From positions 1-22,590 of the IMG/VR virus record IMGVR_UViG_3300014970_000006: 22,590 bases of DNA; one strand, written 5' to 3'. This document shows positions 1-22,590 of this stretch, piece by piece (the stretch's first letter is position 1; each line of letters opens with the position of its first letter). The DNA is from a virus. Taxonomy: Duplodnaviria; Heunggongvirae; Uroviricota; Caudoviricetes. Below the pieces are notes generated by a model. That model was not told where the DNA came from. It did not search any database and saw only the letters and a list, made by a program, of their open reading frames with translations. Both the position numbers and the translations under genes were made by a program.

Positions 1-60
1 TGGTAGAGCAGCGCATTCGTAATGCGAAGGTCGTAGGTTCGACTCCTATTATCGGCACCA
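1..60 (+). tRNA. thrW: 3' portion of tRNA-Thr (anticodon CGU), truncated by the window edge; likely prophage attachment site
   Basis: Anticodon loop TTCGTAA (U33, anticodon CGT, A37); T-arm GGTTCGACTCC; acceptor 3' strand TATCGGC plus CCA ending at 60; integrase gene lies immediately adjacent. Confidence 0.85.
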
Positions 61-16133: not shown

Positions 16134-16883
16134 ATGCATCGTATAGACACGAAAACCGCGCAGAAGGATAAGTTCGGCGCGGGTAAGAACGGTTTTACCC
16201 GTGGTAACCCCCAGACCGGCACACCTGCCACCGATCTGGATGATGACTACTTTGACATGTTGCAGGAGGAGCTTTGCAGCGTTGTGGAGGCATCCGGTGC
16301 CAGCCTGGAGAAGGGGCGGCACGACCAGCTGCTTACCGCGCTTCGTGCGCTGCTGTTAAGCCGCAAGAATCCGTTTGGTGATATCAAATCGGATGGCACG
16401 GTGAAAACGGCTCTCGAAAACCTTGGTTTGGGAGAAGGCTCTGCATTACCTGTTGGTGTCCCTGTTCCGTGGCCTTCAGCCACTCCGCCAACAGGCTGGC
16501 TGAAATGCAATGGTGCGGCTTTTTCTGCTGAAGAATACCCGGAACTGGCAAAAGTTTACCCGACAAATAAATTGCCTGATTTACGTGGTGAGTTTATTCG
16601 CGGCTGGGATGACGGAAGAGGAATTGATACTAACCGTAGCTTGCTTTCATCACAGGGCGATGCCATTCGAAATATAATTGGTGCATTAGTGGATGTCAGG
16701 TTTAATACCTATCCTTCTGATTCTGGTGCTTTTACAACCAGCGTCATCGGAGATGCTTCATCTGATTCAATTAAAGGTGGTTATGCAAAGCGAGTAACAT
16801 TTGATGCTTCCAGAGTTGTTCCAACTGCAAACGAAAACCGTCCGCGTAATATTGCATTTAACTATATCGTGAGGGCAGCCTGA
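16134..16883 (+). CDS. Tail fibre protein: constant N-terminus fused to the currently expressed variable C-terminus
   Basis: Tail-collar-like segment [23 protein letters not shown]...[19 protein letters not shown]; the crossover site lies inside the gene at 16416-16437. Confidence 0.8.
16416..16437. repeat. Left hix/gix-like crossover site of the invertible segment
   Basis: GAAAACC-TT-GGTTTGGGAGAAG; inverted copy at 18220-18241. Confidence 0.75.
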
Positions 16884-17900: not shown

Positions 17901-18220
17901 TACCAGCCCTTAGCGAAAAACGCACCACCTTCAAGACCATAATTGCAGTGAGCTATGAAGCCGGTAGTGCTCCAATTGGTCGCCCCCCACATATTCCCGC
18001 CCCCGAAACCACCATCGCACACAATTACAATGCCCGGTGTCTGTGTAAATGGAATCGGGAATGAAACATTGGCGGATACAGGCCCGTGTTCACCAGGAAA
18101 ACTAATTCGTCCCCACTGTTCAATTGAACCATCTGGCATTTTTCGCCAGCCTGAACCTGATGCATATGATGACATATCAGGTATCTGATTTTCCCCTGTT
18201 CCCACATTTCGTTTTGCCGC
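17900..18220 (-). CDS. Alternative tail fibre variable C-terminal segment, promoterless until inversion
   Basis: Reading frame runs through the right crossover site; Gly-rich fibre-tip-like sequence; no independent start expected. Confidence 0.6.
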
Positions 18221-18241
18221 TTCTCCCAAACCAACGTTTAT
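18220..18241. repeat. Right hix/gix-like crossover site
   Basis: Reverse complement reads AAACGTTGGTTTGGGAGAAG, matching the left site over about 20 nt. Confidence 0.75.
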
Positions 18242-18300
18242 GAAAATGCAGAAATAACGAGCAAATGGCATCATTCCTGCTTTTGTCAGGGAGATCTACC

Positions 18301-18855
18301 ATGCTTATTGGCTATGTACGTGTGTCAACAAATGACCAGAACACAGATCTACAACGTAATGCGCTGAACTGTGCAGGATGCGAGCTGATTTTTGAAGACA
18401 AGATAAGCGGTACAAAGTCCGAAAGGCCGGGACTGAAAAAACTGCTCAGGACATTATCGGCAGGTGACACTCTGGTTGTCTGGAAGCTGGATCGGCTAGG
18501 GCGTAGTATGCGGCATCTGGTCATTCTGGTTGAGGAGTTGCGCGAACGTGGCGTTAATTTTCGCAGCCTGACGGATGCTATTGATACCAGCACACCGATG
18601 GGGCGTTTTTTCTTTCATGTGATGGGTGCCCTGGCTGAAATGGAACGAGAACTGATTGTTGAACGAACAAAAGCTGGACTGGAAGCTGCTCGCGCACAGG
18701 GACGAATTGGTGGACGTCGTCCCAAACTTACACCAGAACAATGGGCGCAGGCCGGGCGATTAATTGCATCAGGCGTTCCTCGCCAGAAGGTGGCGATCAT
18801 CTATGATGTTGGTATATCGACACTGTATAAGAAGTTTCCGGTCGGAGATAAATGA
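18301..18855 (+). CDS. pin: Serine DNA invertase (Pin/Gin/Hin/Cin family)
   Basis: MLIGYVRVSTNDQNTDLQRNAL... with catalytic Ser and C-terminal HTH (GRIGGRRPKLT...); AGGGAG RBS upstream of ATG at 18301; adjacent to the invertible segment. Confidence 0.93.
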   Translation: MLIGYVRVSTNDQNTDLQRNALNCAGCELIFEDKISGTKSERPGLKKLLRTLSAGDTLVVWKLDRLGRSMRHLVILVEELRERGVNFRSLTDAIDTSTPMGRFFFHVMGALAEMERELIVERTKAGLEAARAQGRIGGRRPKLTPEQWAQAGRLIASGVPRQKVAIIYDVGISTLYKKFPVGDK

Positions 18856-18895
18856 AACCGTAGCACGTCGTATGCAAGATCGTGCTGCGGTTTAT
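18856..18895 (+). repeat. Hairpin repeat copy 1
   Basis: CCGTAGCACGTCGTATGCAAGATCGTGCTGCGG: stem GCACG/CGTGC with 13-nt loop; near-identical direct copy at 19873-19912. Confidence 0.6.
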
Positions 18896-18912
18896 GCTTA
18901 TCACTTAAAGAC

Positions 18913-19782
<870 letters not shown>

Positions 19783-19872
19783 CTAATTCTTTGAATTTAC
19801 ATAGTAAAAAAAGATACTTTTCCTCATAGTGTGAGCTAATTTTATGTTTCGTTTGATGATCGGACCGGTCTC

Positions 19873-19912
19873 AAAAACCGCAGGCACGTTGTATGCAAGA
19901 ACGTGCTGTGGC
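19873..19912 (+). repeat. Hairpin repeat copy 2
   Basis: CCGCAGGCACGTTGTATGCAAGAACGTGCTGTGG; direct repeat of copy 1 with about 4 differences. Confidence 0.6.
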
Positions 19913-20067
19913 TGGCTGGGGAACTTCCAATAGTGCGAATATTAAATGATGTCCAGCCGTTACCGTTTTTACGTGTTTATTAGTGAACAAACCACTCGTC
20001 AGCAGACTCCTAGGTATGAACAAAAGTTTTAGCTGAAACTCTATCTGTGGTGCGCGTAACAGAAGTG

Positions 20068-20098
20068 TAATAAAAGGCCCTAGAAAAGGGCCTAAGAT
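20068..20098 (-). terminator. Intrinsic terminator after the small ORF
   Basis: On the minus strand: AGGCCCT-TTTCT-AGGGCCT hairpin followed by TTTATT. Confidence 0.65.
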
Positions 20099-20107
20099 TA
20101 GCAAAGA

Positions 20108-20251
20108 TTATCCTCGATACTTAGAGGCAGGAATTTTGATAGGAAAGGCTGCCAAGCCTTTTTGACGAGCAAAGATCCGTTTACCTTTGACCGTAATAAA
20201 AGGACGGTAAATTGTGATGTATTCCTCAGATACAGCTTTTTCAATGGTCAT
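20108..20251 (-). CDS. Small basic 47-aa ORF downstream of ImmA (below the ORF-track size cut-off)
   Basis: Hand-translated: MTIEKAVSEEYITIYRPFITVKGKRIFARQKGLAAFPIKIPASKYRG; ATG at 20251, TAA at 20108-20110, terminator immediately after. Confidence 0.35.
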   Translation of the reverse strand: MTIEKAVSEEYITIYRPFITVKGKRIFARQKGLAAFPIKIPASKYRG

Positions 20252-20277
20252 ATCGTGTTACCTGTAAAGTTTCGCTG

Positions 20278-20378
20278 TTGACAAAACCTAAGGTAAGCGT
20301 ATACTCACAACCGCCAAGTTTTTCGTATTTGCTTACGATAGGAGAAGCCAGCGACAGCGGTTCGCTGGCTTTTTCGTT
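20278..20378 (+). ncRNA. Candidate small RNA unit: near-consensus promoter plus terminator, convergent with the ImmA/small-ORF transcript
   Basis: TTGACA, 16-17-nt spacer, TATACT at 20278-20306; hairpin AGCCAGCG-ACAGCGGTT-CGCTGGCT plus TTTTT at 20346-20375; no ORF in between. Confidence 0.3.
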
Positions 20379-20910
20379 ATCTTTTTGCATTTTTTCTCAT
20401 CCAGGTTTCAGCCGCTTGTTGACTGACACCAAATGTTTTGCTTATATCTTCAACAGTCATTGTGGGCAAAACTAGTCTTGAGTCAATTAAGAAGTGGCTT
20501 GCAAAAACATCTGCTTGCCATTCGCTGTCTTCATAGATTTTATGCCCTCCACTAGTCTTATTACGTGCATAGATACTTTGATTGCGATGCATGACTAAAT
20601 GACCAAGTTCATGCGCAACAGTGAATCTCGCATGGTTCTCACCATTGCACACTGCATCGTAAACAGATCGCTGTAAAACAATTTTGTTCTTATCTGGATA
20701 AGTCACTGCATAGCGTTTGGGCAGTTCATGATCTTCAACAATTTCTAGCTCAATGCTTTCTGAGGCCATAAGACCTTCTAGTAATACATCCAGTCTCAGA
20801 TATGTGTGATTTGATATCTGAAGAACGTCTCTCAGACGATGAGCGTATGATTTAATCATGCTGGTGCTGAGAGGTGAAACGCGATGGCCAAGTTCTCGTT
20901 TCGCAATCAT
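20377..20910 (-). CDS. ImmA/IrrE-family zinc metallopeptidase
   Basis: HEXXH motif in FTVAHELGHLVMH; 177 aa; directly downstream of and nearly overlapping an XRE HTH gene. Confidence 0.85.
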   Translation of the reverse strand: MIAKRELGHRVSPLSTSMIKSYAHRLRDVLQISNHTYLRLDVLLEGLMASESIELEIVEDHELPKRYAVTYPDKNKIVLQRSVYDAVCNGENHARFTVAHELGHLVMHRNQSIYARNKTSGGHKIYEDSEWQADVFASHFLIDSRLVLPTMTVEDISKTFGVSQQAAETWMRKNAKR

Positions 20911-20913
20911 TAT

Positions 20914-21264
20914 TCAGTCCTTTAACATTTTATTAAGCTTATCGAGTTGCTCTGGACTCAGGTCCTTAAATTTACGAGCAAAAACAAGCATTAGTTCTTT
21001 GTTCTGCTCATTTGCATCCGACATATCAACCTTAATGGACGGTTGAGAAATCTCTGCCTGTTTCTTGAGATTGATGATGTCTTGTCCGCTAAGCTCAAAA
21101 GTTGTTGCAATCGTATTTACTAATGAGTCCGGTATAGCTCTTTTGCCTAATTCAATGGCGGATAAGTAAGCCGAACTAACGCCTAACAGATCAGCCATAT
21201 TTTTGAGCACCATACCCCGGTCTATTCTCATTTTTCTGAGAGTCTTACCAAAGCTAGTTACCAT
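20914..21264 (-). CDS. XRE-family helix-turn-helix transcriptional regulator
   Basis: LRKMRIDRGMVLKNMADLLGVSSAYLSAIELGKRAIP is a Cro/C1-type HTH; GGAGG RBS upstream of ATG at 21264. Confidence 0.85.
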   Translation of the reverse strand: MVTSFGKTLRKMRIDRGMVLKNMADLLGVSSAYLSAIELGKRAIPDSLVNTIATTFELSGQDIINLKKQAEISQPSIKVDMSDANEQNKELMLVFARKFKDLSPEQLDKLNKMLKD

Positions 21265-21546
21265 GTTGCGCCTCCTACAATCCATGCTCACTTATACTAA
21301 AAACCAAACTCAAGATCAACAAAAATTGTAGAATTTTTTAATCTCAGCGTGTGATGACAATCTACATAAAATCATGAAATGGTGCAAGGCGTAACTTAAA
21401 AAATACCACATGTAGTGTCAATTTTATGTGCTGTATGGATATATGGGGTTGGTAAACTTTTGCTCTTTTGTGCTCCTCAGCTATATGGTTGTTTGATTTT
21501 TGAACATCTTGTGGAACATAAATTGGGTTTATGCTTTTCCCTTTCG

Positions 21547-21574
21547 GTGACAACATGTTTATAGGATGTATAAT
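21547..21574 (+). promoter_or_regulatory. Sigma70-like promoter for the Bro-N gene
   Basis: GTGACA, 16-nt spacer, TATAAT; AAGGAGG Shine-Dalgarno 7 nt before the GTG start. Confidence 0.5.
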
Positions 21575-21597
21575 CCATAAAAAAAGGAGGGGATGGC

Positions 21598-22359
21598 GTG
21601 CAAAAGAATTTGTTACAATTATGCTACGAAGGAGAGTGTGGAGAAAATTATATCCGTAGCATGAATGAAAAAGGGCAGATTTTTGTTTCACTTTCAGATG
21701 TGCTAAGAACGCTTTCTGCTGAGAACAGAAAACTGGATGGAAAGACTTCTCAAAGCTTGCTCACTGTAATAAGAGCGGTAATAAAAACTTTAGATCCAGA
21801 TGAGTTTAGGAATGTTTCTCTTGTCGTGGATGGTGAAACTATCTCTGAGGTATTTCTTACTGAACCAGGTCTATATAGAGTACTTGCTCAGGATACTACT
21901 GCTGCGGGGAAAAAATTCCAACGCTGGCTTTTTCATCAGGTCCTTCCGTCTATTCGTGAATTTGGTGTATATCCTCCGCCACCTAAACAAGAACGTTCAG
22001 AACTGAGTGCTTTTGCTAACAGTCTGCAGCAGACGGTTCAAGCATTGGTAATGGAAATAGAAAAACGTGAAGAGTTAGAAAGTAGAGTAAACCAAGTTGA
22101 ACTAAAAGTTAACTCGTTAGAAAGTTTAAGAGATTTGTCTCAGTTCAGAAGTGTTCCTCAACGATTGATGGAGTTAGGTTTGGATACCTATTCAGTTGAG
22201 GAACTTTGGCAATGGTGTGAAAAATTGCGTAGTGAACGTGGAGCAGAAAGAATTAAGTGCCCCTCCGGATTGAATATAAATTCTTGCTATCCATTAGCTT
22301 TGGTTGATGAAGCTATCGCTATATACCAGAAAGTAGTTGAGGCAAGAACACGTCAGTGA
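21598..22359 (+). CDS. Bro-N domain protein (antirepressor-like) with coiled-coil C-terminus
   Basis: VFLTEPGLYRVLAQDTTAAGKKFQRWLFHQVLPSIREFGVY is a Bro-N signature; GTG start with strong SD. Confidence 0.8.
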   Translation: MQKNLLQLCYEGECGENYIRSMNEKGQIFVSLSDVLRTLSAENRKLDGKTSQSLLTVIRAVIKTLDPDEFRNVSLVVDGETISEVFLTEPGLYRVLAQDTTAAGKKFQRWLFHQVLPSIREFGVYPPPPKQERSELSAFANSLQQTVQALVMEIEKREELESRVNQVELKVNSLESLRDLSQFRSVPQRLMELGLDTYSVEELWQWCEKLRSERGAERIKCPSGLNINSCYPLALVDEAIAIYQKVVEARTRQ

Positions 22360-22376
22360 GCTTGAGGGAAAAAAAC

Positions 22377-22404
22377 AAAAAAGCCCGCATAAGCGGGCTT
22401 TTTT
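22377..22404. terminator. Bidirectional intrinsic terminator between the Bro-N gene and ssrA
   Basis: A-run, GCCCGCATAAGCGGGC hairpin, T-run. Confidence 0.8.
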
Positions 22405-22529
22405 GTCACTCGGGAGCCGCGGCTCCTTTGCGTATCCTTTTTTGTCTCCTCACCGTCTGGTCGGTGTCCTGCTGAGACTGCTAACTTCCTGTTTTTATTG
22501 GTGTTGTCCTTACACCGTCCAATCATGAT

Positions 22530-22590
22530 TGGTGGAGCTGGCGGGAGTTGAACCCGCGTCCGAAATTCCTACATCCTCGGTACTACATGC
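22530..22590 (-). ncRNA. ssrA: tmRNA 3' end (tRNA-like domain), truncated by the window edge
   Basis: Reverse complement reads ...GTAGGAATTTCGGACGCGGGTTCAACTCCCGCCAGCTCCACCA, the tmRNA 3' terminus. Confidence 0.85.

Follow-up and report, generated by a model that had tools for sequence, protein, structure and literature searches.

A short, predicted antisense RNA gene is described here in positions 1 to 22,590 of the tailed-phage record IMGVR_UViG_3300014970_000006 (IMG/VR, Caudoviricetes). This whole stretch of 22,590 nucleotides (nt) is called the window below. The RNA gene lies on the + strand and fills the 125-nt gap between the last two genes of a three-gene operon on the - strand, which encodes an XRE-family repressor, an ImmA/IrrE metallopeptidase and a small protein of 47 amino acids (aa) (Table 1). 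ImmA contains the motif HELGH, and the adjacency of an XRE helix-turn-helix (HTH) protein and an M78/COG2856 peptidase of the HExxH type is characteristic of CapH/CapP-like modules. The proteases of CapH/CapP, ImmR/ImmA and DdrO/IrrE cut their repressors in response to a DNA-damage signal (bioRxiv 10.1101/2022.04.27.489752; PMC6868357). By analogy, the ImmA protein of the window may cleave its XRE partner upon DNA damage or infection. The resemblance to these three systems lies in the side-by-side encoding of an XRE repressor and an M78 metallopeptidase, but they have been described without an embedded antisense RNA or this small open reading frame (ORF). Unlike CapP-type relatives, moreover, the ImmA studied here belongs to a distinct HKIYEDSEWQA subfamily that nearly always has the small ORF downstream.

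Table 1. Features of the antisense RNA gene and the surrounding operon, in window positions.
Feature	Position	Strand	Description
Promoter of the antisense RNA	20278..20305	+	-35 TTGACA 20278-83, 16-nt spacer, -10 TATACT 20300-05
Predicted antisense RNA, ~65 nt	~20310..20376 (67 nt)	+	Predicted start site at 20309-20313
Intrinsic terminator of the antisense RNA	20341..20375	+	14 pairs, 7 G-C, loop 7
Predicted hairpin in the sense leader	20287..20342	-	z -2.95 in the window; mean z -2.5 over 35 loci
XRE-family HTH repressor, CapH-like, first operon gene	20914..21264	-	Pfam HTH_19/HTH_3; PADLOC capH 1.2e-10; RefSeq annotation
immA, ImmA/IrrE metallopeptidase, CapP-like	20377..20910	-	Pfam PF06114 (Peptidase_M78) 2.8e-11; PADLOC capP 5e-15
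47-aa small protein gene, last operon gene, presumed antisense target	20108..20251	-	Shine-Dalgarno sequence AGGUAA 20258-20263
Intrinsic terminator ending the XRE-immA-small ORF operon	20075..20093	-	Compensatory stem changes in relatives
BRO-N (antirepressor-like) gene, divergent from xre	21598..22359	+	Pfam Bro-N; PHROG anti-repressor Ant

Predicted promoter, transcript and terminator of the antisense RNA

An initial, sequence-only reading of the window had proposed a near-consensus promoter on the + strand, followed about 45 nt later by an intrinsic terminator. Both elements were recovered. The promoter hexamers match the sigma-70 consensus at 11 of 12 positions, which makes the site the joint best promoter-like site in a scan of 18500-22590, and the first stem base of the terminator lies 36 nt past the -10 hexamer, close enough to the proposed distance. 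Promoter-like matches of at least 9/12 as such occur at chance level in 18500-22590 (8, compared with 8.1 expected). The pairing of a promoter of at least 11/12 with a strong terminator within 160 nt, however, is found only once in the 22.6-kb window, at 20278-20375, and in none of 200 random windows generated by a first-order Markov model. The combination is therefore beyond chance. The stem of the terminator is closed through GGCUUUUUC, and GUUAUCUUUUU comes next, providing the U-run on the + strand. On the - strand, CUUCUCCUAU comes after this hairpin and contains no U-run, so that the hairpin is expected to act as a one-way terminator, for the + strand only.

The RNA delimited by these signals has a predicted folding energy of -26.8 kcal/mol (z = -4.5 compared with 200 shuffles). 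It consists of a 13-nt single-stranded 5′ tail, ACCGCCAAGUUUU (20310-22), a 5-bp hairpin (20323-38) and the terminator (20341-75). The 3′ end is situated at, or directly adjoins, the immA stop codon (20377-20379), and the overlap with immA is nil or minimal. Regarding the antisense target, for which both the ImmA 3′ end and the leader of the small ORF had been suggested, the leader stands, whereas the immA 3′ end is barely or not overlapped. The -35 hexamer begins 27 nt upstream of the small-ORF AUG (20251-20249), and the predicted start of the RNA is located ~59 nt upstream of that codon. Complementarity to the RNA stops ~45 nt short of the Shine-Dalgarno (SD) sequence of the small ORF. The RNA thus covers the intercistronic leader only, leaving the SD and the AUG outside, and within the leader the complementarity is perfect by construction. 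An own promoter and terminator opposite a transcribed leader, the arrangement expected of a cis-encoded antisense small RNA (sRNA), is present in the window and, as a layout, across 32 lineages.

The RNA does not belong to a described family. At gathering thresholds, Rfam 15 matched only the transfer-messenger RNA (tmRNA) and a tRNA-like end fragment in the whole window, and a more sensitive Rfam search of 19700-20700 returned sub-threshold chance matches only, the best scoring 17.6 bits where the gathering score is 50.

Conservation among close relatives and recurrence in unrelated lineages

Close relatives were compared using seven distinct loci whose ImmA is 78-88% identical, all identities being measured against the window. 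The promoter segment (82-100%) and the body of the RNA (82-99%) are retained better than the DNA of the small ORF (41-75%) and the 3′ end of immA (52-79%). Both hexamers are invariant around a variable spacer, the differences in the two RNA hairpins are confined to the loops, and the 5′ tail does not vary within the close family. The 47-aa ORF itself is conserved at the protein level in close as well as distant relatives, despite its strongly diverged DNA.

In RefSeq, a 49-aa hypothetical protein (WP_001519526) is annotated by PGAP on the - strand at 20241-20390, coinciding with the antisense RNA gene. Together with the chance frequency of weaker promoter-like matches in the region, this annotation would fit a fortuitous promoter match, with the hairpin being a terminator or stabiliser of the neighbouring transcripts, or a region that encodes the 49-aa protein instead of an RNA. 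The frame is, however, interrupted by a 1-nt deletion in phage LLS and in the relatives L013 and L014 and by other indels in L015, and it has no protein family match in Pfam or PHROGs. Because single-base indels break the frame in relatives, the 49-aa ORF is taken as non-coding and the annotation is probably spurious; being the sole ORF that overlaps the RNA, it leaves intact the initial assertion that the RNA contains no ORF. The missing U-run on the - strand, the absence of the promoter-terminator pairing from all random windows and the deep conservation of the arrangement add to this, making a fortuitous match or a 49-aa gene very improbable.

Beyond the close family, the arrangement can be followed through the ImmA subfamily, for which a scan of IMG/VR yielded 445 relatives with an invariant motif HKIYEDSEWQA[DN]. 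Of the 80 best loci among these 445, 66 encode a homolog of the small protein 109-217 nt downstream of immA. The 66 gaps form 32 clusters without detectable mutual nucleotide similarity. A sigma-70-like promoter of at least 9/12 was found in antisense orientation in 20 of the 32 clusters and in sense orientation in three; for terminator-like hairpins the respective numbers are 21 and 3. The -35 hexamer of the antisense promoter starts 18-38 nt upstream of the start codon of the small ORF in 15 of the 20. The same layout is present in Acinetobacter and Burkholderia chromosomes, and in Veillonella the three-gene order is seen, at the level of gene order, with a gap of 189 nt. Judging from these comparisons, slot, strand and geometry are kept far beyond sequence conservation. 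This is the strongest argument in the analysis: because they outlast the sequence, the antisense transcript would be a functional part of the module. It also sustains two earlier proposals, namely that the RNA is convergent with the ImmA/small-ORF transcript, as most unrelated lineages have an antisense promoter and an antisense terminator in this slot, and that the + strand holds a dedicated RNA gene of ~65 nt, for which the invariant hexamers, the 82-100% identity and the recurrence in unrelated lineages all speak.

Homologs of the RNA itself were traced with a covariance model, R1, built from the E. coli RNA. R1 matches phage LLS and the L018/L096 lineage, and a homolog occurs in the expected position and orientation where ImmA is only 46% identical; the terminator stem of this homolog has G-C to A-U compensatory changes. 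Although the remainder of the RNA has diverged, CGCCAA(G) recurs at its 5′ end in L099, L100 and L018/L096. Such a 5′ end, invariant in the close family and kept further out, would also be expected if the RNA were mainly a trans-acting, Hfq-type sRNA with the 5′ tail ACCGCCAAG as seed, its position in the leader being secondary. The layout of a single-stranded 5′ seed, a small hairpin and a Rho-independent terminator is indeed typical of such sRNAs. Complements of the seed, however, occur at chance frequency in the window and in the whole LLS genome, and the RNA is always found together with immA and the small ORF, never alone. Moreover, distant lineages keep the slot and the orientation with an unrelated RNA sequence, which fits a role in cis. 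A mainly trans-acting RNA is thus considered rather unlikely.

Proposed repression of the small ORF and comparison with known systems

The explanation that is favoured, with reasonable though not high confidence, is that the small ORF is kept silent by a constitutive cis-antisense RNA for as long as the operon has not been derepressed. The narrower statement that the RNA is functional and represses the small ORF seems fairly probable from sequence comparison, and comparative evidence likewise supports the antisense control of the small ORF that had been put forward at the outset. Since few gaps have a sense promoter, the small ORF is probably transcribed by read-through from the xre promoter, and the candidate for the latter (9/12) is weaker on paper than the antisense promoter (11/12). 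In a resting lysogen, XRE would hold the operon nearly off, and any transcript reading through would have its leader paired with abundant antisense RNA. RNA polymerase at the strong convergent antisense promoter would meanwhile occupy the DNA 7-80 nt upstream of the small ORF. Transcriptional interference is plausible, given that this footprint lies immediately in front of the small ORF, and pairing and promoter-bound polymerase could together block production of the small protein. RNase III cleavage of the duplex may add to repression. Upon a signal, which by analogy with CapP, ImmA and IrrE would be DNA damage or phage infection, ImmA would cleave XRE, sense transcription would outrun the antisense RNA and the small protein would be made. 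The protease-controlled switch would in this way have a threshold for its distal output, and the RNA would set this threshold.

How pairing could affect translation has to be considered separately, because the SD and the start codon lie outside the RNA and a direct block of the ribosome-binding site (RBS) by the RNA is therefore impossible. One answer may be offered by the structure of the sense leader. Its predicted hairpin has a 5′ arm, CCUAUCGUAAGC, that is complementary to 20331-42 and lies within the stretch that the antisense RNA covers. The 3′ arm, GCUUACCUUAGG, which is the complement of the promoter spacer at 20287-98, is positioned just upstream of the SD and holds UUACCU, complementary to the SD AGGUAA. 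Despite their differing sequences, most lineages show complementarity between the spacer and positions of about +17 to +35 in the RNA body (mean z -2.5, with z < -2 in 21 of 35 loci). As the spacer is outside the antisense RNA, this helix can form only in the sense leader (or in DNA). Antisense pairing with the 5′ arm would then free the 3′ arm, which would base-pair with the SD of the small ORF. When the antisense-covered part of the leader was masked, the mean unpaired probability of the SD decreased from 0.385 to 0.274 over the 35 loci; in a control with a shuffled middle segment it went from 0.417 to 0.423 (Wilcoxon p = 1.6e-5). With the mask applied, the minimum-energy structures of the window and of several independent lineages show the complement of the spacer paired with the SD. 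In-silico support is moderate for such a switch, made up of three parts (anti-anti-SD, anti-SD and SD) and operated by the antisense RNA; as a model, the switch is considered possible but rather doubtful. Equally conventional possibilities are that RNase III cuts the duplex or that a ribosome standby site is blocked, as for IstR-1/tisB. As a general terminator or attenuator the sense-leader hairpin was rejected, as its U-run occurs only in the family of the window and its loop comprises ~30 nt.

The same structure could be read differently, with the conserved block being a cis element of the sense strand, either a structured leader or an XRE operator, and no functional RNA being made. The inverted repeat between the spacer and the downstream sequence does form only in the sense transcript or in DNA, and the sense leader folds better than its shuffles (z -2.8). 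This structure is nevertheless compatible with antisense control, of which it would be a part. Invariant hexamers around a variable spacer are the signature of a promoter, and the strand asymmetry of both promoters and terminators is hard to explain without antisense transcription. As for an operator, the arms of the repeat are ~40 nt apart from centre to centre, unlike an HTH operator, and the region of the RNA gene shares no k-mer of at least 8 nt with the xre-bro control region. A purely sense-strand element is therefore judged unlikely.

Several observations nevertheless count against repression by the antisense RNA in the form preferred here. Firstly, the RNA overlaps neither the SD nor the start codon of the small ORF. 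Secondly, in the partition function of the full-length leader of the window, SD accessibility is unchanged (0.50 versus 0.51), and the anti-SD pairing of the window is displayed by a truncated leader only; besides, the 35 loci used for the switch are not phylogenetically independent. Thirdly, about one third of the lineages, mostly GC-rich ones, lack a recognisable sigma-70 antisense promoter. Lastly, the U-runs of some antisense terminators fall in Lys-rich 3′ ends of immA, and because of this overlap with Lys codons the terminator asymmetry could be inflated, although several antisense terminators are located 30-50 nt inside the gap, away from the Lys codons of immA.

The presumed target of the RNA belongs to a family of 890 clusters at 50% identity (32-90 aa, E <= 1e-3 among 1.84 billion representatives), with the core [YF]x[IV]..[FY].T.KGKR[IVL][FY]A..G..AF.[IF].V. 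The family extends over Proteobacteria, Veillonella and many uncultured phages, and its genes nearly always lie 110-220 nt downstream of an immA of the HKIYEDSEWQA type. The small protein matches no Pfam, PHROGs, NCBIfam or PADLOC model, the clusters of its family carry no annotation, and its predicted fold resembles no solved structure. It is basic and has no hydrophobic stretch or transmembrane segment; AlphaFold2 predicts a four-strand beta core (pLDDT 79.5). With its 47 aa and an adjoining antisense RNA, it has the size (below 60 aa) and the genetic context of a type I toxin, but by sequence and AlphaFold2 model it is not the hydrophobic membrane peptide that is typical of such toxins. The protein could be a toxin, an antirepressor or a DNA binder. 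One member of the family gives a weak match to Arm-DNA-bind_4 (E 0.03), which was not relied on. In a Vibrio parahaemolyticus lineage (L165/L166, 3108-4001), the small-protein gene is preceded by ~900 nt without called genes instead of an annotated XRE-ImmA pair, and the regulators may be degraded or merely uncalled there.

Short constitutive cis-antisense RNAs that guard a small or dangerous gene are a well-known kind of regulator. The sar RNA of phage P22 is, as reported by Liao and by Wu and their co-workers in 1987, an antisense RNA of ~69 nt with its own promoter and an intrinsic terminator, located between arc and ant. Convergent with the operon, sar keeps the distal gene ant off at low operon transcription, and it covers the RBS of ant. 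The RNA of the window resembles sar in having its own promoter inside an operon, in convergent orientation between a regulator gene and a distal gene, in its intrinsic terminator and in its place in a secondary regulatory region of a temperate enterobacterial phage. It differs in leaving the RBS uncovered, and in its partners, which are XRE/ImmA and a 47-aa protein instead of Arc/Mnt and Ant. The OOP RNA of phage lambda, a constitutive antisense RNA of 77 nt with a strong promoter and a terminator of its own, acts through RNase III on the duplex. It is likewise short, has its own promoter and terminator and is convergent with an operon, in its case an early one, but it overlaps the 3′ end of the cII coding region, whereas the RNA of the window is situated in an intercistronic leader; the two are unrelated in sequence.

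Another parallel is found in tisB/IstR-1, symE/SymR and dinQ/AgrB, in which the leaky expression of an SOS-controlled small toxin is stopped by a constitutive small RNA that sets a threshold. The circuit proposed here would similarly place a small ORF under a stress-cleaved repressor with a threshold-setting RNA. The pairing site of IstR-1 is a standby site at a long distance upstream of the RBS of tisB, and the RNA of the window would also pair upstream of the RBS and not on it. However, the sensor of the SOS-controlled pairs is LexA/RecA and not an XRE/ImmA pair, their toxins differ from the basic, beta-rich 47-aa protein without a transmembrane segment, and the RNA of the window, unlike theirs, lies between two cistrons of one operon and is cis-antisense in the strict sense. 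The modelled switch, finally, is reminiscent of plasmid replication control (pT181 RNAI/II, pIP501 RNAIII, pAMbeta1), where an antisense RNA takes the 5′ arm of a leader and the freed 3′ arm forms an alternative helix. In the plasmids this helix is a transcription terminator, in contrast to the SD sequestration predicted here in silico, for a prophage accessory operon and not for a replicon. In the literature on ImmA, COG2856 and CapH/CapP in connection with an antisense RNA or a small protein, no description was found of the arrangement, of an antisense RNA within XRE/ImmA modules or of the small-protein family.

A wider reading, which is tentative and more likely wrong than right, is that of a widespread four-part module consisting of a CapH-like XRE protein, an ImmA of the HKIYEDSEWQA type, an antisense RNA that acts by a switch and a beta-protein effector of ~45 aa. 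Such a module might constitute a protease-triggered, RNA-thresholded release of an effector, be it an abortive-infection toxin, an antirepressor or a DNA binder. It is found in the accessory regions of prophages and in islands, in Proteobacteria, Negativicutes and many uncultured phages, and frequently has defence or BRO-N genes as neighbours. XRE/ImmA-type repressor-protease pairs are now recognised as general damage or infection sensors that activate mobile elements and anti-phage defence. One large ImmA subfamily seems to have a tiny, uncharacterised protein as its output, with an antisense RNA inside the module guarding its expression. If this is true, the locus would provide a new small-protein effector that is open to testing, a natural protease-plus-RNA threshold circuit, and a new family of phage-encoded regulatory RNAs that annotation pipelines have missed and that is mis-annotated as a 49-aa protein in E. 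coli.

Prophage setting and neighbouring features

The 3′ end of ssrA, encoding the tmRNA, is found at 22530-22590 (-), cut by the end of the window, and marks the prophage attachment site. The window further holds tail genes, an invertible tail-fibre segment and a DNA invertase gene, and from these features it is interpreted as a prophage integrated at ssrA. The XRE-immA-small ORF operon resides in an accessory region between the tail fibres and the attachment site. The element is carried by 34 of 5,426 complete E. coli genomes and also by the lambdoid phage LLS, and C3 (NZ_CP010119) and KSC1031 are examples of E. coli strains that have it; in phage and plasmid collections, the RNA was found in phage LLS only, without any plasmid carrier. 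In LLS, the element is located in the b-region adjoining attP, distant from the cI/cro genes of the phage (PMC12315714). Because of this distance, it is regarded as an accessory module and not as the primary immunity region. The genes are not discussed in the LLS paper (PMC12315714). A search of 596 Gb of genome contigs with the nucleotide pattern TATACTCANNACCGCCAAG gave 37 matches in unrelated phyla, none of them enterobacterial; as this is about the chance expectation for 17 fixed bases, the matches are uninformative.

In the E. coli family, the operon stops at a conserved terminator directly after the small ORF, and the genes downstream of the module differ between hosts. On the other side, the BRO-N gene is divergent from xre. 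Veillonella and Acinetobacter likewise have BRO-N genes next to the module or in its vicinity (L168, 10-528; L159, 8081-8890), and the gene of the window may serve the XRE/ImmA switch as a second output. A perfect 7-bp palindrome, AAAAATT-GTAG-AATTTTT (21321-21338), overlaps the predicted -10 hexamer of xre and is a candidate operator for XRE; the vicinity of the antisense RNA gene has no further copy.

Downstream of the operon, past its terminator, the stretch 19873-20064 is 80-92% identical to dinI of many lambdoid and Shiga toxin (Stx) phages. It has no intact ORF, the only reading being a C-terminal ...ADEWFVH* on the - strand, and it looks like a dinI remnant between the module and the next gene. 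That gene, located ~400 nt downstream of the operon on the same strand (18913-19686), encodes a GIY-YIG (LEM-3-like) protein with a full-length match to PD-T4-3 (PADLOC 2.7e-140; PHROG 5356), a validated single-gene defence system against T-even phages. Since the module adjoins PD-T4-3 in a prophage hotspot, it is a candidate regulator of, or participant in, conflicts between prophage and host or between phages.

Further away, a 20-nt inverted repeat, AAACCTTGGTTTGGGAGAAG, is present at 16418-16437 and 18220-18239 (95% complementary). The two copies bound a segment of ~1.8 kb with an oppositely oriented tail-fibre C-terminus and assembly ORFs, which is adjoined by a serine invertase gene of the Gin/Cin/Pin type at 18265-18855 (+). 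The segment is an invertible cassette for host-range switching, and a similar one is annotated in phage LLS. At the start of the window, positions 1-57 (+) give a 5′-truncated tRNA-like match in Rfam (40 bits), where ARAGORN calls no tRNA.
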